This document shows, in pieces, positions 17,206 through 36,440 of a stretch of 64,000 nucleotides of DNA. The notes below the pieces were generated by a model. It did no database searches. It worked only from the letters and a program-made list of their open reading frames with translations, and was not told where the DNA came from. The stretch lies in the NCBI GenBank assembly GCA_963733675.1, contig CAVTET010000001.1, positions 544,001-608,000 on the forward strand, in the 5' to 3' direction. Origin of the DNA: an uncultured Methanosarcinaceae archaeon (GTDB lineage Archaea > Halobacteriota > Methanosarcinia > Methanosarcinales > Methanosarcinaceae). Every line of letters begins with the position of its first letter. Position 1 is the stretch's first letter. The position numbers were made by a program, and so were the translations under genes.

Positions 17206-18483
17206 TCAGCCGAGGATTTTCTTCATGGTTGCAGACACCCCTAATGCCACTCCTTCGACTTCAATGCCTCCTTTTCCTTTTGCGCCGTCTCCTACTACGT
17301 AAAGTTCTGGAATAGGGGTCTCATTACCTGGATCCATGCCTGAGGCTGCCCTATTCACAGGCCAACCGTCATGGTATGACTGAATGAGTAAAACTTCATA
17401 TTTTTTGCCTGGGAAGATTTCTTTAAGATCTTCAAGACCTAATTCGATTTCAACCCTTAGATTTTTCAGGTTCTCAGGGGCTATGTGCTGGTGGGACATT
17501 GTAAGGTGTTTGCCTGGTGGAGCCAAATTTGGGTCAACATGCGTAACTTCATTAATTCCATTTACCCTTTTTGCATATGGAGTTAGCAGGATTCCGGAAT
17601 GCCCTATCAGAGGCTCATCTGCAGCAAGACAAATCTTTATTCCAGCAGAGGGCTTTAGGACCTCAAGCATTTTGAGGTAACTGGAGTATGTTTTATCTAA
17701 AAGAGCTTCACTGCAAAGAAAGGCAGTTGCTACATGCCCAAGATTACTGATGATCAGATTTGCTTCATATGCCCGATCTCCAGCAATAATGCCTGCTGCT
17801 CTTCCGTTTTCCACAAGGATTTTCGAGACTTCGGTTTTATTATAAATCCTTCCACCATTTGCAATAATTACAGCTTCTAGGGCATCTATAACTCCTTTGC
17901 AGCCTCCAATTGGTACGCCTGGACCACCGAATCTATAGATGTTTTCAATCATTTCAAAAAATTCTTCCAAAGGGACACTGTCACTTTTTAGACTAAGGGA
18001 CCAGCCGCAGAAGGAGTCTGCAAGTCTCAAAAGCCATTCATCATTAAATTGATTCTTGATCCACGCTTTCAAATTGCTTCCATCAGGGCGGTTTTTTCTC
18101 GTACTCACAATAAGTAGAGCAATTTTCAGGCGGTCTTTGTTTGAAAGAGGTGTGAAAAACTTGTTGAAAAAAATGTCCTTGAAGCCTTTCCTGTAATTAG
18201 GATTACTTTTTTCTAGAGGTATCCGTATGGTTGGCTGTTCTGATCGAATAATCTGCACATCAGCATTTACTTCCTTTAAAAATTGGGTTAAAGGTCCTGT
18301 GGGTCCATGAGGAAGTGTATGTAAAGCTCCGCTGGAAAGCTGGAAGCCTCTGTAATTGAGATTTGTAAATCTTCCTCCAGTGATTGGAAGTCTCTCAAAA
18401 ACTTCTACTTGGTATCCTACCTGTGAAAGTTTAGCGGCACTTAAGAGTCCTCCTAAACCGGCACCAATAATAATCGCTTTCAC
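17206..18483 (-). CDS. Phytoene desaturase-like FAD oxidoreductase (possibly isoprenoid/geranylgeranyl reductase)
   Basis: IIGAGLGGL, E..GGR, SSGALH, YVVGDG motifs; GTG start coupled to the ferredoxin stop. Confidence 0.8.
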   Translation of the reverse strand: MKAIIIGAGLGGLLSAAKLSQVGYQVEVFERLPITGGRFTNLNYRGFQLSSGALHTLPHGPTGPLTQFLKEVNADVQIIRSEQPTIRIPLEKSNPNYRKGFKDIFFNKFFTPLSNKDRLKIALLIVSTRKNRPDGSNLKAWIKNQFNDEWLLRLADSFCGWSLSLKSDSVPLEEFFEMIENIYRFGGPGVPIGGCKGVIDALEAVIIANGGRIYNKTEVSKILVENGRAAGIIAGDRAYEANLIISNLGHVATAFLCSEALLDKTYSSYLKMLEVLKPSAGIKICLAADEPLIGHSGILLTPYAKRVNGINEVTHVDPNLAPPGKHLTMSHQHIAPENLKNLRVEIELGLEDLKEIFPGKKYEVLLIQSYHDGWPVNRAASGMDPGNETPIPELYVVGDGAKGKGGIEVEGVALGVSATMKKILG

Positions 18484-18641: not shown

Positions 18642-19759
18642 TCGATTCTACCAGCTTTTTTATCGTTATTTTAATATATTGTTCAATGTGTAGCTTGCTG
18701 TTTTTATTAAGATCAATTTCTTAGGCATGTTTTCATCCCTGCAGTTAATACGATAATTATCATGTAATCGATAATATGTAATTTATTTATTCCCTATAAA
18801 CATATAGTAATGTAGGTATGTTGGTATTTGCTATCAGTTTATTTATATTTGTTATTCTGGCCCCAAGTTATTGAAAAGAAATTTTGATCATTAATAGAGG
18901 ATTATAGATAAATCCCTAAGTTTTGTCATATGCCTGTAAATGGCATATAATGACTCATGAAAATCAGAGGTTCATCAAAATTCTCAAAAATTTATATATA
19001 TTCATCTTGAAGTATCAAGATAAGTAAAATCATACTTTCTAAAACTTAGATTTTCCACTTAGAAAATATTTATTCAAATTCCCGGTTTTTGCTTCATGCC
19101 TCAAGATGTAACAGGAAGAACAAAAATATTTCTCTTCAGGTCGCGTGCAGTTTACGGAAATCTGACCTTAAAGAAAGGTAATTCATCTTTTTTAGATCAT
19201 CTCCAGCTTAAATCTTATGAATGCTTGAACTCATAAGAAACTAAAATGAGTGCCTTAAACATCTAATTTGTTTCACACTTAGAGGGATTTTTTGGTTGGT
19301 CAAAATTTAGTCAAGTGTGTGAATAAAAGCCAAAATAGTTCACTATATTTATTAAGATTTATTGTTTAGTTAATAAATTTGTGAAGAGAAAATTAAAGGA
19401 AAAAGTTATATTATTTGTACTAAAGTAAATATATATAATATATTATTTTGTGGTTCATTTAATTGATTTTGGTTTTTAATGGTTAATTTTAGATGAATTT
19501 TTTTGAAGTTATAAAGAAGTCCTCAAAAAATTAATTTTATTTTTTTATAATTTACTTTAGACGTTGAGAAGTAGATAAGAATTTAGTTATCAAATAATTT
19601 AATATTATCTATAGTACTCTATACTACTCTATATCTCCTTTTTTATTTGTACTGTAACATACTCACACGCAACGTTCTGGATAACTTAGAGCAGGCGCAA
19701 TATAATAAAAGCCCTTAATGCTCGACTAGTTTTTCTCTTATTAAGCTTTTACTTCTTTC

Positions 19760-20053
19760 TATTCTATTCTTTCTATTTTTTTTCTTTGTTGACAAAGGGT
19801 TTGCTAATTTTCTCTGGCAACCAACTAGGCCTATTTTCGGGAGCTTTTACAATTTGTTTCCATGCTTTGGAAACGTGTACCTCCTTTGTTCCACTCCCCT
19901 GAGGCGGATAATTTCCGGTTTTGATTTTGTCCCTTTAGTCTGGTTTGTAGCTTTTAGTGTAGCCTGACGAGATGTTTTCCATTGAAAAAAACCATGCTCA
20001 TTTCCGTCTTCGGCTCGTAAAACTACATTTTTCGCACTAGCTATAATAGTCAC
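19760..20053 (-). pseudogene. Frameshifted chromosomal protein MC1 paralog
   Basis: NVVLRAEDGNEHG...RQATLKA...PEIIRLR, then shifted frame KAWKQIVKAPENRPSWLPEKISKPFVNKE. Confidence 0.8.
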
Positions 20054-20589
20054 CTCGAATATTAGTTGCTAGACATTGATTATGTTTTCAGGGATATCTG
20101 ATTTTCTTTGGATGTTGCCTGTAGTTATTGCTTTATCACAATTTATATTTTCAGGTAATAACTGAATTTTAATCCATCGTTGGCAAATAGATTCTATATA
20201 ATTATGTATAGACTGTAAAATCAGATTGTAAGTCTTTGGGGATAGACAATTTTGTAGGTTTGAAGCTAGCTAGAAAAGACTTAATCCTTGAAGATTCTAC
20301 AAACCTCTTGTCTATAATTATTACTTTGTTTAATATAATCTACTACGGGTGTAAAACGACTATGAACAACGGAATTTGTCTTTTTTAATATCTTTTTGAA
20401 ACTACAATTGACCGTAGGCGCAAAGTAAACCACATTAATTGCTTTCTTATTTACCTGCATCGTCCTATTCAGTCAAAGAGCAAACAGAAGGTAGATTATT
20501 GAAACTTTCTATCCAATATTCTATTAAGCGCAAAAAGATAGAAACAGTGCTATCAACATAGAGATTGCCTGTAAAGAAGAAATTCACCA

Positions 20590-21236
20590 CAGGATTAAAG
20601 AATAATTTACAGCTAATAGCTTTACTTATTGACCTTCAGGCTGATAAATTCAAAAGTAAAATAGGAGTGATGAGTTCAGAAATCATAGATGTTTCAGGGA
20701 AAGTCAGGATAGAGTAGTATCTATGGCTCTTATTCATGAAGAATTATACAAAGGTGAGAAGTTCGAAGATCTGGATTTTGTACCATACATTAAGAAGTTC
20801 AATCAAAATCTTTTCTAGACTTATAAGCTTGTAAATACAACTATAAGCTTAAACATACATCTGGAAGATGACCTTTTCTTTGATATGGATACTGCAATCT
20901 CATTAGGAATGGTTGTTAATGAACTTATTTCGAACTCCTTAAAACATACATTTCCAGGCTGAGATCACGGAGAAATCCAAATCAAATTATGCCGTGGAAA
21001 AACAGAAGAATGTATAAACCGCAGAGAAGAAAACAAGAATGAAAATTGTAATACTACCAGTATCATTATGATCATCTCAGATGATGGAGTAGGTATACCT
21101 GCAAATCTTGAGATTGTAGATATTGAAAGTATCGGATTCCAGCTGGTAACTTTCTTATGGATCAGTTAGATGGGGAACTTGAACTTAAAAGGAACGATGG
21201 GACTGAATTCACTATGAACTTCACAGTAAAAGAATA
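20590..21236 (+). pseudogene. Decayed HisKA_2/HATPase kinase C-terminus
   Basis: [49 protein letters not shown] with stops and shifts. Confidence 0.8.
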
Positions 21237-21399
21237 AAAGCAAGCATAAATTATGTTTGACAGCAATGCCTATTACATTTGATTTTATCCATCAAGTGCG
21301 TACTATAAGGGGAGTTCAAAATAGCTATCAACATCCTTGGTCTAATTTGACAACTTTGTCTTTAAAAATATAACGCTTGTTAATATTTTCTGGAATCTT

Positions 21400-21720
21400 C
21401 AAATTGCAGACTCTCGGAGAGATACTCTATTTTCGAGTCCAGGTCCCTAGCAACAACGAGAGTTTCGGGGTTTCTGTAGGGGGCCAGAAGACTGTCATCT
21501 CGTCATACGACAAATGTACACCGTCTGGTTGCTCATCCACCAGAATTGTAATCTGAGCATAGGATAATGCATCTGAAAAATGCTTTTTCATTTCTTTCAT
21601 GATGAACGTATTGCCGATTATCGCTACGACCACGATTGCAGTAGCACTGCTCGTCCGTACAAGGAACTCAGAATGGCAGTTCCATAGAAAGGAGCAGAAG
21701 GAAAAGATGCTACGATTGCC
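21400..21720 (-). pseudogene. DUF302-like protein remnant
   Basis: IIGNTFIMKEM...SYAQITILVDEQPDGVHLSYD. Confidence 0.45.
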
Positions 21721-21989
21721 TAGATTGCGGCAGATCCTAAATTAAGGTAATAGATAACCTTACCGAGCATAATGGTCACAACTTAAATGCCGATCCTACT
21801 TTCTAACCATTACAAGGAAAAAGGGGCCTGTTGGAGAAGCAAGTAGTTGCTTGTGGTAACTGTTCCAACAAACAGGGTTGCATGGAGGGCAAAATCGAGA
21901 ACAAGCTCATATATTCCGTTTATCGGATTACTGTCAAATTTTTTGCTCATCGGGAAATATATCCAATCAAAAGGACAATGAAAACAGAT

Positions 21990-23549
21990 ACTACGATCGC
22001 AACTTTAGCGCCGTAGCTTTCAGCTAACTTGACGAAGTCTGGGTTTTCGAAGTCGATGTGCAAGTGGTGCCCGAACTCAATATCCATTTTCCATTTGATC
22101 AGGCTGTAGCTCCCATCCACCCATACCAGCACGACAATAGGTATTTTTTCGCGCACTGCTGTCTCTGGTTCCTGCGAGTTCATGAGAAACCCGGCGTCAC
22201 CCGCAACCGCGAGAACTTTTCGCTCAGGGTAGGCAAGTTTCGCACTAATTGCACCTGGAAACGCAAAGGCCATGGTTGAGAGACCGTTGGAAATAAGGCA
22301 CGTGTTTGGCCGATACGTGGGGTAAAGACGGGCCATCCACATCTTGACTGCACCTGTGTCAACGAGTAAGATATCTTCTTCACCCCAATGCAGTTCTGAT
22401 ATCTGCGACGATTCTCTGGGGCTTGAGAGGATATGAGTTGTCTTCTCTTCCCCTCTCCAACTCTTCCCATATAAGGTGAGTGATCTTGGTATCTATTGGG
22501 CTCAATCCCGGTGTCGCCTTAACTTCTTGAGACAGGGTGTCGAAAGACTCTGAAATACTGCCTTCGATGCCGACCATAACGTGGTAGTGAGCGTCGACTC
22601 TTGCTGGATAGCGATGAATATGGATAATCTGCTTATCCCCTTTTGGATTGATTCTCACAGGATCAAATTCTTGCAGATCATAGCCGACGCATATAACTAC
22701 GTCAGCCTGGTCGAAGCCAAAATTGACGTAGTCATGGAGCATAAATCCTGCAGCGCCCAGAGAATTAGGATGATTGTCCGGAAAGACGCCTTTGCCCATA
22801 AAGGTCGTCGCTACCGATATCCTGAGGCGCTCTGAGATATGGATTAGCGCTTCACTGGCATGATCACGTACGGTGCCATGCTCCACCAGAACAATTGGTT
22901 TTTTTGCAGCTTCTAAGACTTTGACAGCTCTTGCTATCTGAGTGGCGGATGGAGAGGAATCATGAACGATATTAATCTCGAGTGAGTGGTATCCTTCGGG
23001 AGCTGGCAAGCTTTCGACATCTTGTGGAAAGGCTAGATACACGGCTCCAGGCCGCTCTGTCTGAGCTTGCTTGAAGGCACTTCGAACCATTTATGGTATT
23101 GCCTCTGCGGATTGGATCAGGGCGGCCCACTTTGTAAGCGGTTTGAACATGCTTACCAGGTCAACGATTTGGTGAGATTCTTTGTAGATGCGATTCAGGC
23201 CTACCTGTGCGCTGATTGCGACGAGTGGCACGCTATCGGTATTGGCATCAGCCGTGCCGAGCATAAGATTAATCGCTCCCCGTCCGAGCGTCGCGATGCA
23301 CACTCCTGGCTGACCAGTGAGACGGCCATAGATATCTGTCATGAAAGAAGCGGCTTGCTCGTGACTGGTAAGGATGAAACGAATGGACGATTCGTTAAAT
23401 GCATCGATCATACGGATATTTTCCTCTCCGGGTATACCAAAGATGTATATGACATCCTTGTTTTCCAAACATCGCACAAAAAATTGTGCGGCATTCATGG
23501 GGAGCTTGATGCAATTCTTTACCGCAAAAGTCTCTTCACTATGTTCCAT
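21990..23549 (-). pseudogene. Thiamine-diphosphate enzyme (acetolactate synthase-like), broken by TAA/TGA and a frameshift
   Basis: IFGIPGEEN, HEQAASF, RPGAVYL, SNGLSTMAFAFPGA, GDAGFLMNSQE. Confidence 0.88.
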
Positions 23550-23704
23550 GAGATTTAAACCTTTTATTTATAAATCGTTTGATGCAAGGTATCTAGTGAG
23601 AATACATCTGGATCGACCTAGGCATTGATGCTAACCCAGTAAAAGGCGGCACGCCTTCAGTGATCTGATTGAGTTCCTCGAGCTCAGTTCGCTGAGTCTC
23701 TCTA

Positions 23705-23825
23705 TTGTTTATAGTCGACCCATAAGCAGCAATTTCTCAGGATGCACCCGCGATTTTGGATCATCGACACGGCTCTTTAAGATGATCGGAACCTTAAAGC
23801 CGAGTACGACTTCGGCCATCCATTC
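23705..23825 (-). pseudogene. Possible C-terminal remnant of a phosphate acetyl/butyryltransferase
   Basis: MAEVVLGFKVPIILKSRVDDPKSRV resembles the GxVLGxxVPIILTSRAD tail. Confidence 0.4.
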
Positions 23826-24350
23826 ATTCTGAGGATTCAATTTGTTTCGCCAGCATGTTTCCAAATTCGAGTAAAGTACGACATGGTATCAGCTTTTCCA
23901 TATTATGAATTTTTGTTTTCAACCATTGTATTTTCATATCCATTCTCATTACTGCAACTTTCCTTTCCTGTTCTTCATTTAGAAGTGCCTAAAACTCAGG
24001 TATTGGGCCAGCATGCATAATTGAATTTTCTTCGCATATGTTTAATTACCTTTTCATGTATGTTCACAGAACAAAATTTTGGATCGGGTCCTTGAATCAA
24101 TAATCAAATATGAAAAAGAAGTATATCTCCCATTTTGGAAAATGTAGAGTGAATCTTGAATTTACGATTTTCAACAATATATAATCACGAGCAATTCTGT
24201 CTCATGAACAACTTGATTTCTTTAACAAAATTTCATTGTAAAAGAAATGTATCCCTTTAATATCTTTTTAGTATATAGTATAAATATATATAGAGAATTT
24301 CAATGAACCCTAATTTTTGGTTGATTGCCTATAAAAAGAATGTAAGCAAT

Positions 24351-24780
24351 TTGTTAAAATCGAAGATTTATCGGAATTATCTGCAATTACCCCTCTACTA
24401 ACACATCCAATCGGTCATCCCTCACTCTTTGACTATTTACCTGTCCACTTTTAACTGTAATGCTATATTTATCTCCTTTGTTTTTTAAATTAATTATACA
24501 AAAAATAGTTTCTTAATAAAAATTACTGCCCCCTCAAATATTTTAAAACCAAAACATAATTAATATAAAATTAGTTCTTAGCTTTAAAAGATTCTATAGT
24601 GAAGTAATTTTTATTAAGAAACTATTTTTTGTATAATTAATTTAAAAAACAAAGGAGATAAATATAGCATTACAGTTAAAAGTGGACAGGTAAATAGTCA
24701 AAGAGTGAGGGATGACCGATTGGATGTGTTAGTAGAGGGGTAATTGCAGATAATTCCGATAAACCTTCAATTTTTTACAA
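24351..24780. repeat. Long inverted repeat: arms ~24351-24527 and 24603-24780, 75-bp spacer
   Basis: ~24368-24527 reads as the reverse complement of 24603-~24763; outer ~17 bp imperfect. Confidence 0.95.
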
Positions 24781-25025
24781 CTGGCCATTAATGACTTTTC
24801 GGATAGGCTCTAAGTCTACGAGGAGGACTATATGGAGCATCAAACTCGAATTGTCACATAATACATATGAGCTTCAGGATGCAGTGAAGAATGGCGACGC
24901 ACATATTACCGTCAAAGGCGAAATTCGCAGAAAAAAATTCGAACAGGATTCTCGCGAGAAAAAAAATCATAAGTAAAGTGGAATTCTCATTAATTCCTGC
25001 AATGTTATCAAAGGAGATTTTACCA

Positions 25026-25670
25026 ATGGTTGAAGAGGAATGTATTAGTTTTCCGACACTGGGTGAACCTGCACCGGACTTTGAAGCCGAGACCACTCAG
25101 GGTCCGATAAAACTCTCTGACCTGAAAGGGAAATGGGTGATACTGTTTTCGCATCCCTCAGATTTCACCCCGGTTTGTACAACGGAATTCATAGCTTTTG
25201 CCGAGATTCACGCTGAACTTGCAGCTCTCAACGTGAAGTTGATCGGGCTGTCTGTAGATAGCATTTCATCTCACCTCGCCTGGGTACGTAACATCAAGGA
25301 AAAGATGAGTGTCACCATCCAGTTCCCGATCATTGCCGATCTGAACATGAAAGTGGCAAAGAAGTATGGTATGATACACCCGGCACAGAACTCGACCGCA
25401 GCAGTCAGGTGTGTATTCTTCATCGATGACAAGGGGATCATGCGGGCGATGATTTACTACCCGCTGCAGAATGGGCGGTTCCTGCCCGAGGTCATCAGGC
25501 TCGTAAAAGCGCTCCAGACGACTGACAAATACAAGGTATCGACGCCGGCCAACTGGCAGCCGGGCGACAACGTTGTCGTGGCCCCGCCGAAGACCGCAGC
25601 CGAGATGGACAAGCGATTAGACGAAGGATGCGAGTGCAAAGACTGGTATCTATGTTTTAAAAAAATATGA
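25026..25670 (+). CDS. Peroxiredoxin (Prx6/archaeal type)
   Basis: FSHPSDFTPVCTTE, GLSVDS, TPANWQPGD, CKDWYLC; AAGGAG RBS before ATG 25026. Confidence 0.93.
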   Translation: MVEEECISFPTLGEPAPDFEAETTQGPIKLSDLKGKWVILFSHPSDFTPVCTTEFIAFAEIHAELAALNVKLIGLSVDSISSHLAWVRNIKEKMSVTIQFPIIADLNMKVAKKYGMIHPAQNSTAAVRCVFFIDDKGIMRAMIYYPLQNGRFLPEVIRLVKALQTTDKYKVSTPANWQPGDNVVVAPPKTAAEMDKRLDEGCECKDWYLCFKKI

Positions 25671-25805
25671 GAGTAGAAGGTGTTTCAACCTCGTTAAACT
25701 TGCCTGATCCTGATAAATGCCAGTTTATAAAATGGCACAGTGGTTCATCCAAGGACTCTCTTTATCAGATATTTCAGGGGCAAGCTCATTAATGGAGATC
25801 TGAGC

Positions 25806-27558
25806 ATGAGTAATATGAGTAATAAATCTGGAAGGAAGGCAAATGAAGGCACTAAAGCTGATGTAATTCTCACAAATGGCCGAATTGCCACACTGGACAA
25901 ACGTAACATGTTTGTTTCATCTATGGCCATTTGTGATGGTCATATCATCACTGTCGGTGATGAAGGGGATACGAAGGAAAATTGGTCCCCTGGCACCAGA
26001 GTTATTGATGTGCATTGACTGTTGTTCCTGGGCTTAACGACTCGCACGTTCATGTAGTTCGTGCAGGTCTCAATTACAACATGGAGCTTCGATGGGATGG
26101 TGTGCCGACATTAGCTGAGGCTCTTCGGAGGTTACGAGACCAGGCCAGACGGACGCCGCCGGAAGAGTGGGTTCGCGTCGTGGGAGGCTGGTCTGAATTC
26201 CAGTTCGCTGAGCGCAGGACGCCGACGCTGACAGAGATCAACGAAGCGGTGCCTGAACAAACTGGCCTTTGTCCTATCTGTACCATAGTGCCATGCTCAA
26301 CCGGTTGGGGAGTGGCAGACGTGGGCTACAATCGAGATACACCAGATCCTCCTGGCGGTGTGATTGAGCGTGACGAAGAAGGTAATCCCATAGGTCTCTT
26401 TTTCGCTAAGCCGAATGCGAACATTCTGTACTCGACACTTGCCAAAGGACCTAAGCTCAGCTATAGCGATCAATTAAATTCCACCCGGCAATTTTTGTGG
26501 GAGCTCAACCGTTTTGGGGTCACTAGTGTCAGAGATGCAGGTGGTGGCTCCCAGAACTTTCCTGAGGATTATACCGTTATTGGCGATCTGGCAAAGCGAG
26601 GTCTGCTTATTGTCCGAGTAGCCTATAATCTGTTCACTCAACGTCCCAAACATGAGCTGGAGGACTTTGCTAGCTGGGTGAATATGACGAAGCCGGGTCA
26701 AGGTGATGATTTGATGATTTCTACAGGATGAACGGTGCAGGAGAGATGTTAGTATTTTCCACAGCAGATTTTGAAAATTTTAGTGAACCTCGCCCTGAGA
26801 TGGCGAACGCGATGGAGAATGAGCTGAAGGATGTAGTGGAACTCCTTTTCCGGAACTGTTGGCCTTTCCGTATCCATGCAACCTACGATGAGTCAATCAC
26901 CCGTTTCCTGAACGTTTTTGAAGAAGTGAATGATGAGACACCGTTCAATGGAATACACTGGTTCTTCGATCATGCAGAAACGATCTCTGAACAAAACATC
27001 AAACGGATTCGCAACTTGAAAGGGGGCATAGCTGTCCAAAAACGTATGGCTTTCCAATGCGAACACTTCGTCGCCCGATATGGAGATGAGGCAGCTACTC
27101 AGGCATCGTCGGTACACAGAATGATGGATATAGGTGCCTCCGTGGGTGCAGGAACATATGCGACGAGAGTATCAAGCTACAATCCGTGGCGTTCGCTGTA
27201 TTGGCCCATTACTGGCAAGTCAGTCGTAGGTGCACCCAGCTTCTCGGAGTCGGGTAGAATCGAGTGCGTATCGGCACTCGGGCTCTATAGTCAGGGAAGC
27301 GCCTGGTTCTCAAATGAGGATGAAAGGAAGGGAACGCTAGGAGTGGGGAAATTTGCTGACCTCGCAGTCTTATCTGCAGATTATTTCACGATTCCGGAGG
27401 AAGCTGTAAAGCAGATTGAATCAGTACTTACCCTTGTAGGAGGCAAGGTAGTATATGGAAGTGGAGAGTTCGAACGGCTCGCACCACCATTATCAGTCAG
27501 CACACCGTGGTCGCCTGTGACTGTATATGGCGGATACCCCCATTCACACTGTTGTTGA
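25806..27558 (+). pseudogene. Amidohydrolase-3 (YtcJ-like), frameshifted into 3 pieces
   Basis: ILTNGRIAT, VVPGLNDSHVH, FRIHATYD, FDHAE, GKFADLAVLS. Confidence 0.85.
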
Positions 27559-28085
27559 GGGCAGCTGCATTAGATCCCCGAACATGGATCGAGATTATTG
27601 AAAAATTTATGCTCGCTTTACCAGAAATACTCAAAGTGCCATAATCTCAGACCAGTTCAGATGCATGTATATTTGGAGATGGTCATGAATAACCAGAGTT
27701 GGTTGGAGAAAACCAATGAGATGCTATCTTTGTCACTAAACGCACGGTTTTAGTCATAATTATCAAACACCTATTCTCCGGAAATAACCCACGAAGCTCA
27801 ATTAAGGGAGGAGACTGAAAGAATCGGGTCGTTTTGGGCCGGGTACCAAGGAAGAAGTATTCTTCCCATCATGATATCTCCTTGTTTCAGGTTGTACGTT
27901 TTTTCCATTCGTATGTTCCAAAAACTGACGGAGATTCCAAAACGAAAACTATAACTAACGCGCTGGAGAAAGTAATGGGTTAATGTACTTTATTTACGGG
28001 TAACTACCTTAGACCAATCATACAGAGAGTGCTTTAACCACGGTACAGCCTGAAGAACACCGAATTGAAAACGAGGCGATACTAT

Positions 28086-29453
28086 TTGTCGAAAGTTGTA
28101 GAGATCTCTCCAACCACGAGACATGAAGGCCACTCCAAGCTCACCCTGAAGGTGAATGATCAGGGTATAGTCGAGCGGGGAGACTGGCTTTCCATTACCC
28201 CGGTCAGGGGTATTGAGAAGCTCGCCATAGGTAAGACGATGGACCAGGTCCCAAAGATTGCCTCTCGGGTATGCGGTATCTGTCCCGTCGCCCATTGCCT
28301 GGCGAGCATCGAGGCCATGGAGGCCTCTGTCGGCTGCGAGATCCCCACGGACGCAAAGCTCTTGCGTGTCATTCTCCATGCTGCTAATCGCTCCCACAGC
28401 ATCGCCCTGCACAACATCCTAATCCTCCCGGACTTTTACATCCCGGGGACGGAGACGAAGATCAACCCGTTCACCAAGGAGCAGCTTTTCAGGAGCGTTA
28501 CGTCAAGGATCATCCACATCCGCGAGATCGGGCAGACCATTGGAGCCATCGCAGGCGGCGAGGCGATCCACCCCTCCAACCCGAGGGTCGGTGGTATGTA
28601 CCGCAACGTAAGCCCCCGGGCAAAGCAGAAGATGGCCGACCTAGCGAAGGAAGGTCTCGTACTTGCCCACGAGCAGATGGAGTTCATGCTCGAGGTCATC
28701 AGGAACATGCAGAACCGGGAGTTCACTGACGTCGCGGGCAAGAAGATCCCGATTCCCAAGAAGCTCGGATACCATGACCAGGGGGTCATGGCCACATCAC
28801 CGATGTATGGCTCATCCAGTCTGGACGAGAAGCCCATGTGGGACTTTGCCAGGTGGAAGGAGACCCGGCCATGGGACTGGTACATGGGTGAGGTAACCAT
28901 CGATCTTGAGGACCCAAGCTACCCAATCGGCGGCACCACGAAAGCCGGCACCAAGGCCAACCCCCAGATGGAAGCCTGCAACGGTGTTCCAACCTACGAC
29001 GGCCAGCCGGTTGAGGTCGGCCCGAGGGCAAGGCTCGCCACCTTCAAGAACTTCACCGATAGAGGTACCTTCGCCCAGCACATCGCCAGGCAGCTGGAGT
29101 ACCCAGACTGCTTCTACACCATCCTCAAGTGCCTTGACAACCTAGATACCTCGGGCAAGGTCCTCGCTGACCCCATCCCCCAGGGGGACGGATCCATGGG
29201 CTGGGCCGCGAACGAGGCCCCACGCGGGACCGATGTCCACCTTGCACGGGTGAAGGACGGGCGAGTGTTGTGGTACGAGATGCTTGTGCCCACCACCTGG
29301 AACCTCCCGACCTGCAGCCGCGGTTTGACGGGAGCGCCTTGGCAGATCGCCGAGATGGTCATCCGGGCCTATGACCCGTGCGTCTCGTGCGCAACACACA
29401 TGATCGTGGTGGACGAGAAGAACAAGATAGTCGACCAGAAGCTGATCCAGTGA
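28086..29453 (+). CDS. frhA: F420-reducing [NiFe] hydrogenase large subunit
   Basis: TTRHEGH, RVCGICP (L1), RAYDPCVSCATH (L2) plus cleavable tail; TTG start after GAGGCG. Confidence 0.96.
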   Translation: MSKVVEISPTTRHEGHSKLTLKVNDQGIVERGDWLSITPVRGIEKLAIGKTMDQVPKIASRVCGICPVAHCLASIEAMEASVGCEIPTDAKLLRVILHAANRSHSIALHNILILPDFYIPGTETKINPFTKEQLFRSVTSRIIHIREIGQTIGAIAGGEAIHPSNPRVGGMYRNVSPRAKQKMADLAKEGLVLAHEQMEFMLEVIRNMQNREFTDVAGKKIPIPKKLGYHDQGVMATSPMYGSSSLDEKPMWDFARWKETRPWDWYMGEVTIDLEDPSYPIGGTTKAGTKANPQMEACNGVPTYDGQPVEVGPRARLATFKNFTDRGTFAQHIARQLEYPDCFYTILKCLDNLDTSGKVLADPIPQGDGSMGWAANEAPRGTDVHLARVKDGRVLWYEMLVPTTWNLPTCSRGLTGAPWQIAEMVIRAYDPCVSCATHMIVVDEKNKIVDQKLIQ

Positions 29454-29458
29454 AGGGA

Positions 29459-29938
29459 ATGGAAACGCTGTACTCCGATGTCGTGGTGGCAGGCTGTGGC
29501 AACCCGCTCTATGCGGACGATGGTTTCGGACCTGCCGTAGTGGAGAGTCTCAAGGGCCTCGAGCTCCCCGAAAACGTCACGGTAGTTGACGCGGGGCTCG
29601 GAGGCCCCCATTTCGTCTTTACCCTCCTCAATCCAGAGTCCACTAAGACTCTTATCATTGTGGACATCGCAGACTTCGGGGGGGAACCCGGCGAGCTCAG
29701 GTGGCTCACCGTTGACGAGCTTCCCGTGGGGAGCTACCGGGACGCCCACTCCTGGGATCTGACCGAGCCGCTCCAGCGCATCAAGGACGATATTCGGATC
29801 CTGGTTCTTGCATGCCAGAAGAAGTACGTTTCTGCCCCCGAGATGGTCATCGGGATTACAGATGAGGTGCAGAGAGCCATTCCCGAAGCTGTATCCGAGA
29901 TACTGACGGAAATCGGGATAAACTATGGGCTTACTTAA
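29459..29938 (+). CDS. frhD: Hydrogenase maturation endopeptidase
   Basis: GCGNPLYADDGFG, DAGLGG, DAHSW; operon position. Confidence 0.93.
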   Translation: METLYSDVVVAGCGNPLYADDGFGPAVVESLKGLELPENVTVVDAGLGGPHFVFTLLNPESTKTLIIVDIADFGGEPGELRWLTVDELPVGSYRDAHSWDLTEPLQRIKDDIRILVLACQKKYVSAPEMVIGITDEVQRAIPEAVSEILTEIGINYGLT

Positions 29939-30024
29939 CTCCATCAAGAAAACCTGGACTTGGAAGCCAAGCCCGCTCAGGTTGCGACGGAGAAGAAGGT
30001 GAAAGCTACAAAGGAGGCGAAACA

Positions 30025-30786
30025 GTGGCAAACAAAATCAAGCTCGGGCATGTACACATGAGCGGCTGTACCGGCTGCCTCGTGTCCATTGCCGACAACT
30101 ACTTGGGACTCATCAAGATCCTGGACGACTATGCCGACCTCGTCTACAGCCTCACACTCGCCGACGTCCGGCATATCCCAGAGATGGACGTGGCGCTCGT
30201 CGAGGGATCGGTCTGCATCCAGGATCATGAATCGGTGGAGGAGATCAAGGAGACGCGGAAGAAGTCCAAGATCGTGGTGGCCCTCGGCTCCTGTGCTAGC
30301 TACGGGAACATTACCCGGTTCTGCCGCGGCGGGCAGCACAACCAACCTCAGCATGAGTCATTCCTCCCCATCGGGAATCTCATCGACGTGGATGTTTACA
30401 TACCAGGATGCCCCCCGAGCCCTGAGCTCATAAGGAACGTCGCTGTCATGACACATCTGCTCCTACAGGGAAACGCGGACCAGAAGGCCCTTGCTGGCAA
30501 GTACTTAAAGCCCCTCATGGCCCTTGCGAAGCGCGGCACAACCGCATGCTTCTGCGATCTGATGAACGACGTGATCAACCAGGGCCTCTGCATAGGTTGC
30601 GGCACCTGCGCTGCATCCTGCCCCGTGCGGGCGATCACCCACGAGTTCGGGAAGCCGCAGGGTCAGCGTGACCTCTGCATCAAGTGCGGCTCCTGTTACG
30701 GCGCCTGCCCGAGATCATTCTTCAACTTCGACGTGATTCCTGAATTCGAGGCTATCAGCGAGATAATCGCTGGAGCGCTTAAGTGA
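30025..30786 (+). CDS. frhG: F420-reducing hydrogenase small subunit
   Basis: SGCTGC, EGS, GSCASYG, PGCPP, two CxxCxxCxxxCP motifs; GGAGG RBS. Confidence 0.95.
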   Translation: MANKIKLGHVHMSGCTGCLVSIADNYLGLIKILDDYADLVYSLTLADVRHIPEMDVALVEGSVCIQDHESVEEIKETRKKSKIVVALGSCASYGNITRFCRGGQHNQPQHESFLPIGNLIDVDVYIPGCPPSPELIRNVAVMTHLLLQGNADQKALAGKYLKPLMALAKRGTTACFCDLMNDVINQGLCIGCGTCAASCPVRAITHEFGKPQGQRDLCIKCGSCYGACPRSFFNFDVIPEFEAISEIIAGALK

Positions 30787-30796
30787 GGTGAATTAG

Positions 30797-31672
30797 ATGG
30801 TTGCAGATCCATATCTCGGCAAATACACGACCTGTGTCTCAGCAAGGAGCAAGGACAAGGAGATCCTCCAGCAGGCACAGGACGGTGGCATCGCCACTAC
30901 CCTTATGGTCCATGCCCTCGAGCAGGGGATCATCGACGGGGCCATTGTGGCAGGCTTGGGCGACCGGCCCTGGCAACCCAGGCCGTTCGTAGCGATGAGC
31001 CGCGAGGACATCCTCAAGGCAAGAGGGACGAAGTATAACATCAGCCCCCAGATCTCCTGGCTCAAGGAGGCTACCCGGTCCTTCGGCCTCGACAAGGTCG
31101 GGGTCACCGGCGTCTGCTGCCAGATGCAGGCGGTCAGAAAGGCTCAGCTCTATCCTATAAACATGCGGGATGTCCCGGACAAGATCGCCCTCACAGTAGG
31201 GCTCTTCTGCATGGAGAACTTCCCGTACAAGTCCATGCAGACCATCGTCGAGGACCACGCGGGCCAGAGCCTCAGCTCAGTGAAGAAAATGGAGATCGGG
31301 AAGGGCAAGTATTGGGTCTACACCGAGCGCGGGAATGTCGTCACCCTACCGCTCAAGGTGACCCACAAGTACGAGCAACCCGGTTGCCACGTATGCCTCG
31401 ATTATGTCTCCAACCTCGGCGACATCTCGACCGGCTCGGTCGGGAGCCCCGATGGCTGGTCCACGGTCTTCGTCCGCACTAAGGTGGGGAACGACGTCTG
31501 GTCCAAGGCAGTCGCCGCGGGCATGTTCGAGACGAAGCCCATCGAGGATGTCAAGCCTGGCCTCGAGCTCGTCACGAAGCTTGCAAAGGAGAAAATCGAC
31601 AAGAACCTGAAGACGGTCGAGGAGCGCAGGACCTTCGGTGTCAACAAGGCGCTGCGGGACCCCTACGCCTAA
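30797..31672 (+). CDS. frhB: F420-reducing hydrogenase FAD subunit
   Basis: AQDGGIAT, GTKY, GVCCQ, GLFCMENF, GCHVCLDY, GSVGSPDGWST. Confidence 0.95.
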   Translation: MVADPYLGKYTTCVSARSKDKEILQQAQDGGIATTLMVHALEQGIIDGAIVAGLGDRPWQPRPFVAMSREDILKARGTKYNISPQISWLKEATRSFGLDKVGVTGVCCQMQAVRKAQLYPINMRDVPDKIALTVGLFCMENFPYKSMQTIVEDHAGQSLSSVKKMEIGKGKYWVYTERGNVVTLPLKVTHKYEQPGCHVCLDYVSNLGDISTGSVGSPDGWSTVFVRTKVGNDVWSKAVAAGMFETKPIEDVKPGLELVTKLAKEKIDKNLKTVEERRTFGVNKALRDPYA

Positions 31673-31884
31673 AACTCATCTTTTTTTCATCATCGAAATT
31701 ATTCGCGTTATTTACATGAATACGGGGATGTGATAGGTTCTCATCCCTAAATTATGATTCCACTTATGTAACTCGGCTATCGCAACTGAGGGGTGTCAAG
31801 GTGGTGGGGTTGAGTCCTCAAGAGCGTCTATCAATCGAGTTTAAAAGTTGAACAGGGGAGTCCTTCAAAATTCGCATCGTCTTA

Positions 31885-32405
31885 TTGTGGTGCTCTTGCA
31901 ACATACTCTAAAGGAACATTAAACATTTGTGCAGCTGTCTCTTTATGTAGATCCAGATTTGTTTTAGATGTCTATATATACTTTGGATCTTCAGCTAGTT
32001 GGTCTATAATTCTAAGCTCAATTTGAGAATAATCACAAGCTATTATTTTATTACCCAGCGCTGCTGTGTAAAACTGTCTCCATTCGGGATATCTACTTGG
32101 CTGCTGTTGCAAATTTGGCTTACTGTTTGTGAATCTACCTGATAAAGTACGATACTGGTTAAACTCTCCCTGCACTCTTTTTATAATTGGATGTGGGCAC
32201 TTAGGAGATCTAATCATTATCTTCCCATATTTTTTAACTTGCGTCTTATAAAATCCCGCTATAAAACCAGAGAGCAATTTTTCAGTCTGCCTATATAAAA
32301 GCAAATTAGTAATTAATTCATCAAGTTTATACTTCCAAAGCTCTTTTTTCCTGTGCCTTTGAGTTTATCATACCCTTTAGTTTTAAGTGCATCTAACTGT
32401 TGGCA
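31885..32405 (-). pseudogene. Family-A DNA polymerase fragment
   Basis: TLSGRFTNSKPNLQQQP, motif A ACDYSQIELRI, then DLHKETAAQMF in a shifted frame. Confidence 0.85.
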
Positions 32406-32728
32406 GAAAATACTCCAAAACCATTGAAGTTGCAATTTCACTGACTCCAAAGTTATGGTTCTGGAGATTGGTTCTTTCCTATTTCACTTAAAGCTGCTAA
32501 TTTTAAAATGTAAATAGAGTACCTGCTCCAAGTAGAACTAATTCATTTTTTGTTTGATTTATGTCTTATTTCACTTTGTGTGTTCAAATCAACATTTCCA
32601 TAGTAATCAAAAGCATCTTGATCTACACTCAGAGAGAATGCAGGAGATTATCTAAAAAAAATAATATAATTGAGCAGTCAGCTCTTCCAATTTACTGTGC
32701 TCTTCAATATCTTTGACTGTTTTGAGAA

Positions 32729-33061
32729 ATGACAGATTATGATCTTTGTGGAAGTGGAATTCCAATAGTTATACCAGTTTGGGTTTTTCGTCCTCTCCTC
32801 AAATTTGCCTATCCAGAAGGTGCATGGAAAGGGCTATGTGAGATGTGTCTCGATTCCGCCGAGAAAACCTATTTGGATATCAACAAAGACGAAATCTCAT
32901 GTAGGAAGAACAAATGCTTTCTATGCGGAAGAAGAAACAACGTTTTCTTAATTAAAGTACAGATCCCTTATTACTCAAAAGGGGTGGTAACAAAAGACAA
33001 AAACCTTTGCTCAAAGTTACTGAAAGCAGTTGAAGAAGTTTATCTTAGGGACAATAAATAA
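32729..33061 (+). CDS. fpoO: FpoO-like protein, degenerate orphan paralog
   Basis: DLCG..IP.VIPV.VFRPLLKFAYPEG.WKGLCE.CLDSA; first Cys appears replaced by Tyr; tail shortened. Confidence 0.7.
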   Translation: MTDYDLCGSGIPIVIPVWVFRPLLKFAYPEGAWKGLCEMCLDSAEKTYLDINKDEISCRKNKCFLCGRRNNVFLIKVQIPYYSKGVVTKDKNLCSKLLKAVEEVYLRDNK

Positions 33062-33460
33062 GAAAATCCATGAAAAAGGATTCGTAAATGGCTATGGTCA
33101 CGTAAATGAGTATCAATGAACATTGGAAGAAATGAGTAAATTTATTTTGTGGCTTTATGTCCTTATTTTTATTTGGTAAGTGCCTTTATCGAGACATCTG
33201 ATGATTAATTTTTTCCATTATATCTAATTTGACAGTTTTATTTTTATGTTCCAACATTATGCAATGTACGAAGATTCAAAATTTGTTTGCCTATTTGGCC
33301 ATATTAGTCATTGAAAGTTGAATTAAATTTTAAGCTACTTTCATATTGGGAAAATTGATGGTATTTTTGTGCATACCCATGGAAAGAAGGTTCAATGAAA
33401 TCGGAGGAAATTTTCATTATTTTCATAAAAATGGAGAAACCCATGGAAAATTAAAAAGAT

Positions 33461-33667
33461 TCAAATATCTATGCTCGCATGTGCATCATCTTTTTCTCTT
33501 TTTTTGGGTTTCTCTATGGTTTTATATACAAATGCTCCTAAACCTCGAGTAACAGGCGTACATTCATGATTCTCTGGTAATCGGCAATTTACGCAAAGAG
33601 ACCTTTGGCACTGATGACACTTGAACGCTAGCCACTCTATCCTTTCCCCACAGTATTCACAAGGCAT
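33461..33667 (-). CDS. AN1-type zinc finger protein
   Basis: CEYC...FKCHQC...CVNCRLPENHEC; GGTGA RBS. Confidence 0.8.
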   Translation of the reverse strand: MPCEYCGERIEWLAFKCHQCQRSLCVNCRLPENHECTPVTRGLGAFVYKTIEKPKKREKDDAHASIDI

Positions 33668-34996
33668 TTAACTCACCATTAACAACTAATGAGTTTAACG
33701 GCTTTATATCCTTTTTCTGTCCAATAATAATTTTAAATTTAGTCAGCTCAGAATCTATTTTTACAAATATAAGCTAATACCACAAAGTTGTTTCAGATAA
33801 TGGAATAATTGATTATAAAAACAAAGACGATCCTATTTTTATCATAGATGAAGTCAATTTACTGTTTGTATCTTCTGAGGAGGATTTCGATAAACTTCTA
33901 ATTTTCACAAGTCGTTTTATGTACCATTTATAAGCATGTGGCATAATTTAGGGATTTATTTCAATCCTCTATACATCTGTGTTGTCGAAATGGGTTTGAA
34001 TCTAATGGGATTTGGAAATATTGACAATACAGATATATGCTAGTATACGAGATATTCTACTGGTATATGAGCAGTTTTTAGGTACTTTCGGAGGGGATAT
34101 GCAAGAAATCAAAGCAAAACCTTCAAGGATTCTCGTAATATTAGGAAATCTTAAAGAATAAGATAACTGATTATCTGGTTCAGAAAGCTTTGAGGGTCGT
34201 AAATGGAAAATAAGATGTTGAGACCTATTAATTGTTCTCAAAAGGGACAAAGATGAAATTATGTATTCACTGTGATTTCTGTGTAAGGGCAAACAAGGTT
34301 TTATTTACAGGGATTCTATTCAGGCTGAGCTATAATACAAAATAATTGGCTTGATGACTGGCTAATAGGAACTTCTGATATCAGAAAACAATTAGTGATC
34401 AGACAAAACCGGTCATGATAATCTACTGGGATGTTGTTGTCAAAGACTATAAGGTATTTCTGAGTAAACTAGTGCTCTAAATATTTAATTATTGATCATT
34501 GGAATAAACTCCTATCCTCTTGCAGATGATAGGCTATCAAGTATTATGTTAGAGAATTAGATTTTCATTATACTTGGGATTGAAATTGCAGATTTATTCG
34601 GTTGAATAGGCTAGAAGCAATTGGTCATCCAGATCATCCTAAATTTTTACTTAATCAATGAAATGAGCCCTGTTGGAGGTAGCTCCTTCAGTGTAAATCT
34701 AGGGGGAAATTATGCTCAAAAGATAACAGGATATCAGGGATTTCGCAGGATCCGAAAGTAATTATAAACTTCAGACAAAAATCTGTAAAAGCTAATCCAG
34801 GCAAGTAATATCTTATAGAAAGGTTTCGAAATCTGAAGTCAAAATGCCTGAAATGGTGAAGGATGTAGATGAGAAGTAAATTTCAGAAAAGCTGCAAAAA
34901 ATCTATGAATTTCAGAAATAGAATTAAAAATCAGATTAATCAGGATAATAAGTCCATCCAAAGTTTAGATTGAGACTTATTAAGGAGAGTGTTATT

Positions 34997-35629
34997 TTGG
35001 TAGAACCATTAGACAAAAAGATTAAGCGCATAGCATGGGGAATTACAGGTTCAGGAGACCAGATGATTGAGACTTATAGTGTTCTTGTGGATATTAAGGA
35101 AAAAACAGATGTTGATACAATGGTTTTCCTTTCCAAAGAGGGGGAGACTGTTATGAAATGGTATCATCTGTGGGATAAAATCCAGGATGATTTTCCTAAT
35201 TTCAAAGTAGATGCAGGCCCTAACTCCCCATTCATTGCAGGCCCACTGCAGATGGGCCACTACGATTTCTTGCTAATAGCTCCTGCAACCGCTAACACTG
35301 TCGCAAAGATAGTTTACGGAATTGCAGATACTCTTGTTACAAATACCGTTTCTCAGACTGCAAAGGGAAAGACACCTATCTTCATTTTACCTGTAGACCA
35401 GAAGAGGGGTACTGTAAAAACTGCTGCGCCCAGTGGCAGAGCTTTTGAGCTAACTATGCGTGAAGTAGATGTTACAAACTCAGAAAAACTTGCACAGATG
35501 GAAAATATCACAATACTCAAAAATCCCTATGAGATCTACGATATCTTTGGGCTTGAAGGATCTCCTGAAAGCATAAAGGAAAAAATTAGTAAACATTCTG
35601 ACAAAAGGAAAAAGAAGCACGGGAAGTAA
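34997..35629 (+). CDS. afpA: Archaeal flavoprotein AfpA-like
   Basis: RIAWGITGSG, NSPFIAG, IAPATANTVAKIVYGIADTLVTN; AAGGAG before TTG. Confidence 0.85.
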   Translation: MVEPLDKKIKRIAWGITGSGDQMIETYSVLVDIKEKTDVDTMVFLSKEGETVMKWYHLWDKIQDDFPNFKVDAGPNSPFIAGPLQMGHYDFLLIAPATANTVAKIVYGIADTLVTNTVSQTAKGKTPIFILPVDQKRGTVKTAAPSGRAFELTMREVDVTNSEKLAQMENITILKNPYEIYDIFGLEGSPESIKEKISKHSDKRKKKHGK

Positions 35630-35933
35630 AAATAGTACTAATAAACCTTAATATAAAAAATATTTTGATATCCTCTTGGATCGATAAAATTTACCATTAA
35701 TCTATTGGCAAGTGACTGCAATCGATCAAAAATCCAGAAAATAATAAAACGTCTCTTACTAATAAGAGAATGATTTAGATATAAGTAGAGCATTTTTTCT
35801 AAATGAGAACAGTAGTTTCATGATTCGATAAAATTTTATTGTTCTTTCAAAAGTAGAGAAAAACCGGAACAAAACTAAAAAAATTCTAAATTAGAGGTAG
35901 CCGGTCGGTTAAAAATTTGAGGAGGGTAAAGGT

Positions 35934-36440
35934 ACGAAGAACGTATATCAGGATGTATTAGAGGAATTAAAAAATCTTGAATCTTTTGAAGAGGCTATTG
36001 GTATGGCTATATGTAGGGAAAAAGAGGCAAGGGAGTTCTACCTAAATAAAGCAAATATAATGGGCAACCAAAAGTTTAAGGAACTTTATGAGTATCTGGC
36101 AAATGAGGAATTGAAACACCTCGGTTACCTTGAAAAATATCGCGACACAAAAAAATTACCAATAGTTAGTGCGAAAGTACATAGTGGTCAGTCTTTTACT
36201 CCTGAGTTCAATACAGATCGAGCAAAGGGAAATGAGATCACTTTTGGAGATACAGGTATTCTTCTTGCAGCTATGAGACATGAGAGAAAAAGCGAGTATT
36301 TTTATTCGGAACTGGCAAAAAGGGCCAAAGACGATGTCCAAAGAAATTTTTTCGAAATGCTGGCAGTATTTGAGAGAGGTCACTACGAGTTAATAGATGA
36401 TTATCTTGAAGAAATAACTAGTTTTAGAATGCAGACCTAA
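35934..36440 (+). CDS. Ferritin-like/rubrerythrin-family di-iron protein
   Basis: EKEAREFY...EELKH and ERKSEYFY...ERGH motifs; frame extends to an ACG behind GGAGG. Confidence 0.8.
   Translation, partial: TKNVYQDVLEELKNLESFEEAIGMAICREKEAREFYLNKANIMGNQKFKELYEYLANEELKHLGYLEKYRDTKKLPIVSAKVHSGQSFTPEFNTDRAKGNEITFGDTGILLAAMRHERKSEYFYSELAKRAKDDVQRNFFEMLAVFERGHYELIDDYLEEITSFRMQT

Follow-up and report, generated by a model that had tools for sequence, protein, structure and literature searches.

The window analysed here is a stretch of 64,000 nucleotides from an uncultured Methanosarcinaceae archaeon (assembly GCA_963733675.1, contig CAVTET010000001.1, positions 544,001 to 608,000). It carries frhADGB, an operon for an F420-reducing [NiFe]-hydrogenase (Table 1). 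The reading that we favour, and consider probable, is that a single intact operon of foreign origin sits where an fpo operon was lost and is likely the cell's remaining link between H2 and F420.

All four Frh products pass the cut-offs of their NCBIfam equivalog models (591 bits against 392.5 for TIGR03295, 220 against 135 for TIGR00130, 362 against 245.5 for TIGR03294 and 438 against 331.5 for TIGR03289), and FrhB, whose motifs are present, also exceeds the cut-off of NF006807. FrhA aligns end to end with the solved chain 6qgt_A (E 1.9e-270), which, like 6qgr_A, we take to be Methanosarcina barkeri Frh. Its Ni ligands lie in RVCGIC (61) and DPCVSCATH (430), the latter followed by a 17-residue tail. 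FrhG has ligands at CTGC 15, GSCA 88 and GCPP 128, and CxxCxxCxxxC at 189 and 218, which form two ferredoxin motifs. The open frame of frhD begins at 29378, and its start is inferred to be the first ATG after frhA. HypA, HypB, HypD, HypE and HypF of the genome are above their cut-offs; HypC is unconfirmed, as the 94-amino-acid (aa) open reading frame (ORF) before hypD had no match at E 1e-20. The sequence traits of a group 3a, F420-reducing [NiFe]-hydrogenase are found: FrhA ligands with a cleavable tail, FrhG clusters, an FrhB subunit, frhD within the operon, and hyp genes. Judged by its sequence, the locus is an ordinary intact F420-linked hydrogenase operon, of a known enzyme and operon type. 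The full frhD rules out a fre-type operon, which has none. It is the single frh of the genome; two other [NiFe] large subunits sit in clusters that, from gene order and general knowledge, we take to be vhtGACD and echABCDEF.

Table 1. Features of the window at and around frhADGB (window coordinates)
Feature	Position	Strand	Remarks
Flavin adenine dinucleotide (FAD) oxidoreductase, left marker of the fpo locus	17206..18483	-	divergent from fpoA in fpo-bearing Methanosarcina
Split MC1 chromatin-protein gene	19776-20068	-	
Insert absent from the loci of four sisters, outside the frh module	20472..27745	.	genes about 48-49% GC, mostly broken
Promoter/leader, apparently carried over from the donor lineage	27891..28085	+	DNA homology with donors L043, L046, L053 begins at 27891
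frhA, [NiFe] large subunit, 455 aa	28086..29453	+	Cys (not selenocysteine) ligands; TTG start; TIGR03295
frhD, maturation protease	29459..29938	+	TIGR00130; likely ATG start
frhG, Fe-S subunit, 253 aa	30025..30786	+	TIGR03294
frhB, FAD/F420-binding subunit, 291 aa	30797..31672	+	TIGR03289
3' tail with GGGGATG...CATCCC hairpin	31673..31760	+	present in 14 of the 15 Methanosarcina rows aligned, in none of the 3 donor rows
Weak, putative remnant of donor-like downstream DNA	31775..31830	+	via L007
Family A DNA polymerase (polA) fragment, between frhB and fpoO	31972..32364	-	PF00476 14-128
fpoO, last gene of the lost fpo operon	32729..33061	+	PF10621 1-109 of 110, E 1e-40
afpA and rubrerythrin, right flank common to sister genomes	34970..36440	+	

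The operon stands out from its surroundings by composition. Its guanine-plus-cytosine (GC) content is 58.7%, against 41.8% for cofH, 34-38% for the contigs and 35.7% for the Methanosarcina genome; the assembly (3.92 Mb in 15 contigs) is rated 92% complete and 2.7% contaminated. GC at third codon positions (GC3) is 0.67-0.83 in the operon, compared with a median of 0.355 over 1449 ORFs of at least 200 aa, with frhB (0.83) ranking first, frhA third and frhG fourth. At fourfold sites the operon has a GC of 0.73 and the ribosomal genes of this genome 0.34. Within about 400 bp past the frhB stop, GC falls from 0.59 to 0.32. An earlier note, made from the letters of the window, had described a complete frhADGB with Ni and Fe-S motifs and a GC-rich operon with a sharp drop after frhB, and both descriptions are borne out.

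We are highly confident that the operon is of foreign origin. Eight loci titled Methanomicrobiales (L013, L015, L043, L046, L049, L053, L054 and L083; 61-67% GC), called the donor loci here, encode FrhA 88-92% identical to that of the window, and FrhG of L043, L046, L053 and L083 is 96-97% identical. DNA identity between the donor loci and the window is 85-91% gene by gene and 88-89% over the 3.8 kb from 27891 to 31688, promoter and spacers included. At fourfold sites the donors differ from the window by 0.28-0.34, and other Methanomicrobiales by at least 0.58. Frh is 89-96% identical between donor genomes and this genome, whereas McrA is 64-67% and flanking genes are 34-63% identical. Donor frh matches the GC of its own flanks (0.61-0.67), and the gene families upstream of it in the donor loci also occur at Methanolinea, Methanoregula and Methanoculleus loci. 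Both the four-gene DNA tree and the tree of codon positions 1 and 2 nest the Methanosarcina frh clade inside a donor subgroup. Supported nesting within the donor order, which the other genes of the genome do not share, and a gene that is native in the donor mark the operon as a xenolog. Among fixed third-position differences, 20 run from G or C to A or T and 2 the other way, an AT-ward drift of the Methanosarcina copies that, together with the shared 3' tail (14/15 against 0/3), indicates a single entry. These comparisons suggest that Methanosarcina likely acquired the operon once, with an uncultured, high-GC family of Methanomicrobiales as its source.

In that family of 20 genomes, the best FrhA match is 88-92% identical in eight genomes (the split G205 is one further row, counted among the eight), 77-82% in nine, in one of which a longer copy of 68-69% ranked first, and missing in two. 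Five of its members (G210, G212, G214, G219 and G220) hold two to four FrhA matches each, some of them 4-6 kb apart on one contig. Among Methanosarcinaceae beyond the genus, a 410-aa FrhA, 38-42% identical to window FrhA in the 6 loci examined, occurs in 15 small genomes that belong to three genera, and 102 genomes of 12 genera are without FrhA. Two frh loci (L021 and L024) in a metagenome-assembled genome titled Acidobacteriota nest among Methanosarcina and are probably mis-binned contigs.

It is nearly certain that the operon is older than this species. The best FrhA matches of the window are from Methanosarcina (94%), FrhA is 84-94% identical across the genus, and TIGR03295 is present in 39 of 58 other genus genomes. 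The GC signature is equally widespread. In all 26 loci titled Methanosarcina, Methanosarcinaceae or Methanosarcinales, frhA has a GC of 0.52-0.61 against flanks of 0.31-0.41, and in all 14 loci identified by handles the values are 0.53-0.59 against 0.34-0.47. The window lies inside the Methanosarcina clade both in the FrhA tree (79 rows, quick search, clade of 30 rows; support of 96 by the Shimodaira-Hasegawa-like approximate likelihood-ratio test, SH-aLRT) and in the four-gene DNA tree (49 rows, clade of 35; 100/100). The codon 1+2 tree supports Methanosarcina at 100/99 and Methanosarcina plus the donor subgroup at 100/100, and a clade of window plus donors is rejected by the approximately unbiased (AU) test, p 2e-87. 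The four closest genomes in the ribosomal tree (G032, G188, G019 and G190), which we call the sisters, all have the operon between the same flanks, at 89-91% DNA identity to the window compared with 83-92% for native flanks. Since the synonymous distance to the sisters is larger for frh (0.26-0.44) than for ribosomal genes (0.12-0.25), the operon appears to have been in this clade since about its origin. A recent genome-specific genomic island was therefore rejected: the composition is unlike that of the host, but the same site is occupied in 4/4 sisters.

The operon very probably occupies the fpo locus. In all 12 fpo loci fetched, which were chosen on FpoD matches, a FAD oxidoreductase is divergent from fpoA, and 11 of them run on to fpoO (the G183 contig ends in fpoN). 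In the window, frh and several inserts sit between this oxidoreductase and an fpoO that is 63-66% identical to FpoO of G030 and G004. Two Cys of its CxxC pairs are replaced, which suggests that fpoO is likely decaying. Among the sisters, G019 and G032 keep a broken fpoA and fpoB codons 1-47 directly against the module end, and G188 keeps a broken fpoN and fpoO at the other end. The frh genes run opposite to the old fpo direction in G019, G032 and G188 and along it in the window and G190, which implies at least one inversion of the module. Of the 59 genus genomes, 45 have an FpoD match (36 of the 39 good ones) and 48 a match to the unlinked FpoF (again 36 of 39), and neither is found in any of the five clade genomes; FpoL is above its cut-off in 0/5. 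An FrhB-like match at C1:533743-534777 was considered as FpoF and ruled out, with 155 of 475 bits and a position beside a glutamate synthase gene. The common ancestor of the five genomes would have received the module at the fpo site, with fpo decaying around it; the insertion may or may not have caused the fpo loss.

It is reasonably likely that frh spread laterally between Methanosarcina lineages after their split. By their neighbourhoods, the 28 Methanosarcina loci compared form 21 groups. Among 378 pairs of 28 genomes (one copy each, with G186 and G020 left out for long or frameshifted rows), the ratio of frh to host distance is 1.44-1.77 in the 126 close pairs and 0.76-0.86 in the 252 distant ones. 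Measured to G030, the synonymous distance of frh is 0.42 and that of ribosomal genes 1.06. The frh data reject a host clade of eight genomes (p 7e-57). The short deep frh branches, set against the host tree, suggest later lateral spread in the genus. The codon 1+2 tree places the window's clade as a basal grade, and frh data neither establish nor reject the five-genome clade as monophyletic (p 0.26). A stronger version, in which the frh module entered the genus through this soil clade, destroyed fpo in one event and then spread to other lineages, is a tentative idea that we think unlikely. If it were true, model Methanosarcina would owe their F420-linked H2 metabolism to one uncultured genus and to late, lateral spread, and this clade would be a natural Fpo-deletion line running its F420 pool on H2 alone.

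Second frh copies in five genomes (G034b, G029a, G171a, G024b and G170b, at L195, L124, L126, L193 and L134) have frhD missing or partial and form one clade. This clade groups with the operons of G007, G184, G015 and G030 (97/95) and not with the frh of its own hosts; to go by this grouping, fre-type operons may stem from transfer within the genus and not from duplication.

The gene content of the genome points to a role of Frh outside of growth on H2 and CO2. Present are hypABDEF, vhtGACD, echABCDEF, mer, mtd, mch, ftr, fno, cdhA, ackA, mtrA and the F420 synthesis genes, and MtaB, MtmB and RnfC were not found in this genome. Compared with the solved chain 9sw6_J, the only FmdB (G000:C1:86596-87903; L208:4596-5903) has Tyr in place of the Cys of TICHGP, which is presumably a metal-binding ligand, and HSH in place of RGH. 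The C-terminal domain of MoaA is found in 0/5 clade genomes and in 52/59 genus genomes. With MoaA not found and an FmdB without its metal-binding Cys, CO2 reduction and growth on H2/CO2 are unlikely. The cell probably uses acetate by way of Cdh, Ech and Vht. Frh, matured by FrhD and the Hyp proteins, would chiefly take H2 to make F420H2 for Fno (NADPH) and biosynthesis. It could also re-oxidise F420H2 from Mer and Mtd, and Vht would take up the H2 again, as in the H2 cycle of M. barkeri. Passages of two M. barkeri studies describe that cycle, in which Vht recaptures Frh-made H2, and present Frh and Fpo as alternative outlets for F420H2, with the loss of both lethal on methanol (bioRxiv 10.1101/334656, 10.1101/335794). 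The ratio of nonsynonymous to synonymous substitution (dN/dS) of frh against the four sisters is 0.07-0.10, and that of ribosomal genes is 0.10-0.12. The frh genes are under strong purifying selection while fpo decayed beside them. An active F420/H2 link through Frh is probable, and Frh is likely the remaining known link of H2 and F420 in a cell that lacks Fpo. Eight RNA runs hold 0.15-0.28 of the sampled words, which is no evidence of expression or habitat. Elsewhere in the genome, a glutamate synthase cluster with an FrhB-like subunit (G000:C1:533743-538099; L205:11743-16099) is a candidate consumer of F420H2.

Several other histories can be set against this reading. The earlier note proposed a recent Methanomicrobiales transfer into this genome that added or restored H2/F420 metabolism. 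The GC3, the highest in the genome, and the donor identity across 3.8 kb, promoter included, fit a recent event, and so does the similarity of FrhG and FrhB to the donors (up to 97% and 95%), about as close as that to Methanosarcina (up to 96% and 95%). The foreign, Methanomicrobiales-type origin is indeed supported by trees and donor DNA identity, but for an older transfer. The proteins nest within Methanosarcina Frh, which the note itself had named as the result that would speak against it. The window-plus-donor clade is rejected, the same site is occupied in every sister at identities like those of native flanks, and the frh synonymous distance to the sisters exceeds that of ribosomal genes; a recent transfer is therefore extremely unlikely. 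Its addition or restoration of H2 metabolism is unsupported as well, as the search for native frh or fre that the note had suggested found the window operon to be the only frh copy, and MoaA and the FmdB Cys were not found. A native origin, with the GC3 due to codon selection in a highly expressed gene, or a reverse transfer from Methanosarcina to Methanomicrobiales, is barely credible. The 410-aa FrhA genes of related genera also exceed their flanks in GC (0.41-0.52 against 0.35-0.47), and expression may thus contribute part of it. Codon selection is rejected as the cause by the fourfold-site GC of only 0.34 in the ribosomal genes, non-coding DNA is donor-like too, and the Methanosarcina clade lies within Methanomicrobiales, whose frh fits the host in gene order and GC. 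An assembly chimera or contamination might be suspected from the rated contamination and two high-GC contig ends, yet both edges of the operon, which the note wished to see checked, are real. At the left edge, single contigs from public soil runs span 26500-28125 (X1 and X2) and, in another study, 27412-28125 (X5), and a single X1 contig crosses the right edge at 29400-34000. They differ from the window at 0-3 positions (32 of 82 pieces are listed, and X1 may be the source sample), and both flanks are common to the four sister genomes. The chimera reading is already refuted and has next to no chance. Purely vertical descent from one acquisition by the last common Methanosarcina ancestor, with relocations and losses and without lateral spread, is unlikely but deserves more weight. 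One clade with a shared tail, shallow clades that match the host tree (G172/G033, G004/G034 and G184/G015/G030, for example) and the presence of the operon in 39/58 other genomes of the genus agree with it. The deep frh branches are short against the host tree, however, and the eight-genome host clade, a group named after the trees were seen, is rejected. Seven 99%-complete genomes without frh stand at several early forks, so vertical descent needs repeated losses.

The role of the operon can be read differently as well. Service in H2/CO2 methanogenesis, as in M. barkeri, finds its partners in this genome, where Frh, Vht, Ech, Hyp, Mtd, Mer, Mch, Ftr, MtrA and an fmd cluster are all present. 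The altered TICHGP and RGH motifs of FmdB and the absence of the MoaA domain from the clade tell against it and leave this a slim prospect. That the operon is a silent passenger, simply undecayed so far, we consider very unlikely. Some Methanosarcina are described as keeping hydrogenase genes without activity, and this genome is full of relics. The dN/dS of frh is like that of ribosomal genes, however, the promoter motif is conserved, and the neighbouring fpo genes decayed over the same interval. We return to the single imported operon at the lost fpo locus as the favoured reading.

A number of observations weigh against that reading. The window has no remnant of fpoA-N by blastn or tblastx, so that the case for the locus is carried by fpoO, the flanking oxidoreductase and the sisters, and G190 keeps no fpo remnant, with even fpoO lost. 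Gene absences are read from assemblies that are 76-92% complete, and fpo remnants therefore weigh more than absences. G009, 99% complete and outside the clade, has frh and is without FpoD and FpoF, the third such good genome. Fpo can thus be lost without this event, and G009 is a possible second loss. G019 has an intact MtaB, and G188 and G190 have a broken or partial one, which means that the clade cannot be called non-methylotrophic throughout. The trees were built under a single base composition, an assumption that the rows violate, one ribosomal cluster makes up the host tree, and the groups for the AU tests were named after the trees had been seen. The agreement of many shallow frh clades with the host tree is what vertical descent would give, and the correlation of root-to-tip distance with GC (rho -0.95) is partly circular. 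In the passages available from the M. barkeri studies, H2 production on acetate is ascribed to Ech alone (bioRxiv 10.1101/334656, 10.1101/335794), so Frh need not be catabolic here, and part of another source describes M. acetivorans as keeping hydrogenase genes without significant activity (bioRxiv 10.1101/2021.10.12.464174).

The surroundings of the operon preserve traces of its source and of later events. An element that we take, from general knowledge, to be BRE/TATA-like (B recognition element and TATA box), CGAAAACTATAACTA, lies near 27943-27957 and is conserved in the window, close Methanosarcina loci and donors, and a GAGG ribosome-binding-like site lies at 28073. A scan 3' of frhB found no terminator. 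Beyond the hairpin tail, the window matches L007 (78% over 127 bp), which in turn matches donor L043 (76% over 68 bp, E 1.6e-5); window 31775..31830 has no direct significant match to the donors. The insert to the left of the module contains a HisKA_2 fragment, a split acetolactate synthase, a peroxiredoxin and a split amidohydrolase. The neighbours had been described as nearly all broken. This holds for six genes of the inserts on both sides, as MC1, HisKA_2, acetolactate synthase, amidohydrolase, polA and fpoO, all located from 18.5 to 33.1 kb, are each split, partial or degenerate (the peroxiredoxin looks whole). It does not hold for six conserved flanking genes, as cofC, cofH, cofG, the FAD oxidoreductase, afpA and rubrerythrin are apparently intact. 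The genome is gene-poor, with ORFs of at least 100 aa covering 53%.

A dispersed 50-bp site with a palindromic core occurs in 233 copies at a score of at least 20 (one per 17 kb) and in none in a shuffled genome. Window copies lie at 18908-18957 (+) and 33910-33959 (-), and also at 8618, 11762, 44798 and 61682. Among frh loci, the site is seen only in the closest relatives and in none outside the clade. It was rejected as a module boundary, as the nearest strong sites (18908 and 33910) lie 8.8 and 2.2 kb away from it. A strict scan for 12-7-12 palindromes gave none at the ends of the module, no terminal repeats occur there among the 20 largest direct-repeat families and the 25 longest inverted pairs listed, and the 43 frames scanned in the window include no integrase or transposase. 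A 206-bp inverted duplication lies at 24356-24774, with arms 93% complementary and 7 bases between them. Elsewhere in the genome, the contig ends G000:C12:341001-346154 and C15:68001-74887 have 65% and 59% GC and are possible contamination or bacterial elements. Other GC-rich ORFs (GC3 0.56-0.72) lie at G000:C12:318418-320628, C7:51527-53737 and C12:216384-217583; we take them to be two catalase-peroxidases and an NAD-dependent formate dehydrogenase, and the last (C12:216384-217583) may matter if the Fmd complex yields formate.

The new element here is frh at the former fpo locus. In the passages of the literature covered, we found no statement on frh at the fpo locus or on the origin of Methanosarcina frh; the Methanomicrobiales origin may already be in print. 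The enzyme behind H2/CO2 growth and H2 cycling in Methanosarcina is apparently a young import from an identifiable uncultured Methanomicrobiales lineage, and the synonymous distance of about 0.42 is close enough to date this import against the genus tree and the acquisition of acetate kinase. In one clade, whose genomes are also without MoaA, Frh physically replaces the complex-I-like Fpo, with which it is redundant in M. barkeri genetics. This provides a testable wiring for soil Methanosarcina, and it cautions that a hydrogenotrophic annotation of these genomes from gene lists may be wrong.

The operon shares features with several known systems. The native frhADGB of the donor family has the same promoter and intergenic DNA; there it stands in a conserved Methanomicrobiales gene order at host GC, whereas here it is isolated and drifting to AT. 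Other redox enzymes were acquired late by the family, like Frh. Passages of two sources report repeated horizontal gains of FdhA in Methanosarcinaceae (bioRxiv 10.1101/2024.01.08.574737) and a likely gain of Ech by Methanosarcina (PMC9723798), and these passages are silent on the origin of Frh. In intestinal Methanosarcinaceae (Methanimicrococcus and Methanolapillus), Fpo is likewise lost and Frh kept, and Frh is proposed, in the parts of the sources available, as the F420H2 source for anabolism (PMC9723798, PMC11362671); unlike the cell studied here, these archaea are described there as being without Ech and CdhA and as reducing methyl groups with H2. Passages of the M. barkeri studies give freAEGB, the second such operon of that species, without frhD (bioRxiv 10.1101/334656, 10.1101/335794). 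FrhA-type subunits are 86-87% identical between the two operons, and the window operon differs from fre by its full frhD. The closest likeness is to Frh of Methanosarcina itself, with the same gene order, subunit lengths, metal ligands and GC-rich signature, and with Hyp, Vht and Ech as partners here too. In contrast to those operons, the one in the window stands at the fpo locus of a genome in which Fpo, MoaA, MtaB, MtmB and RnfC were not found, and it has kept more of its donor character, with its high fourfold-site GC (0.73) and the second-shortest root path among the 35 rows of the clade.

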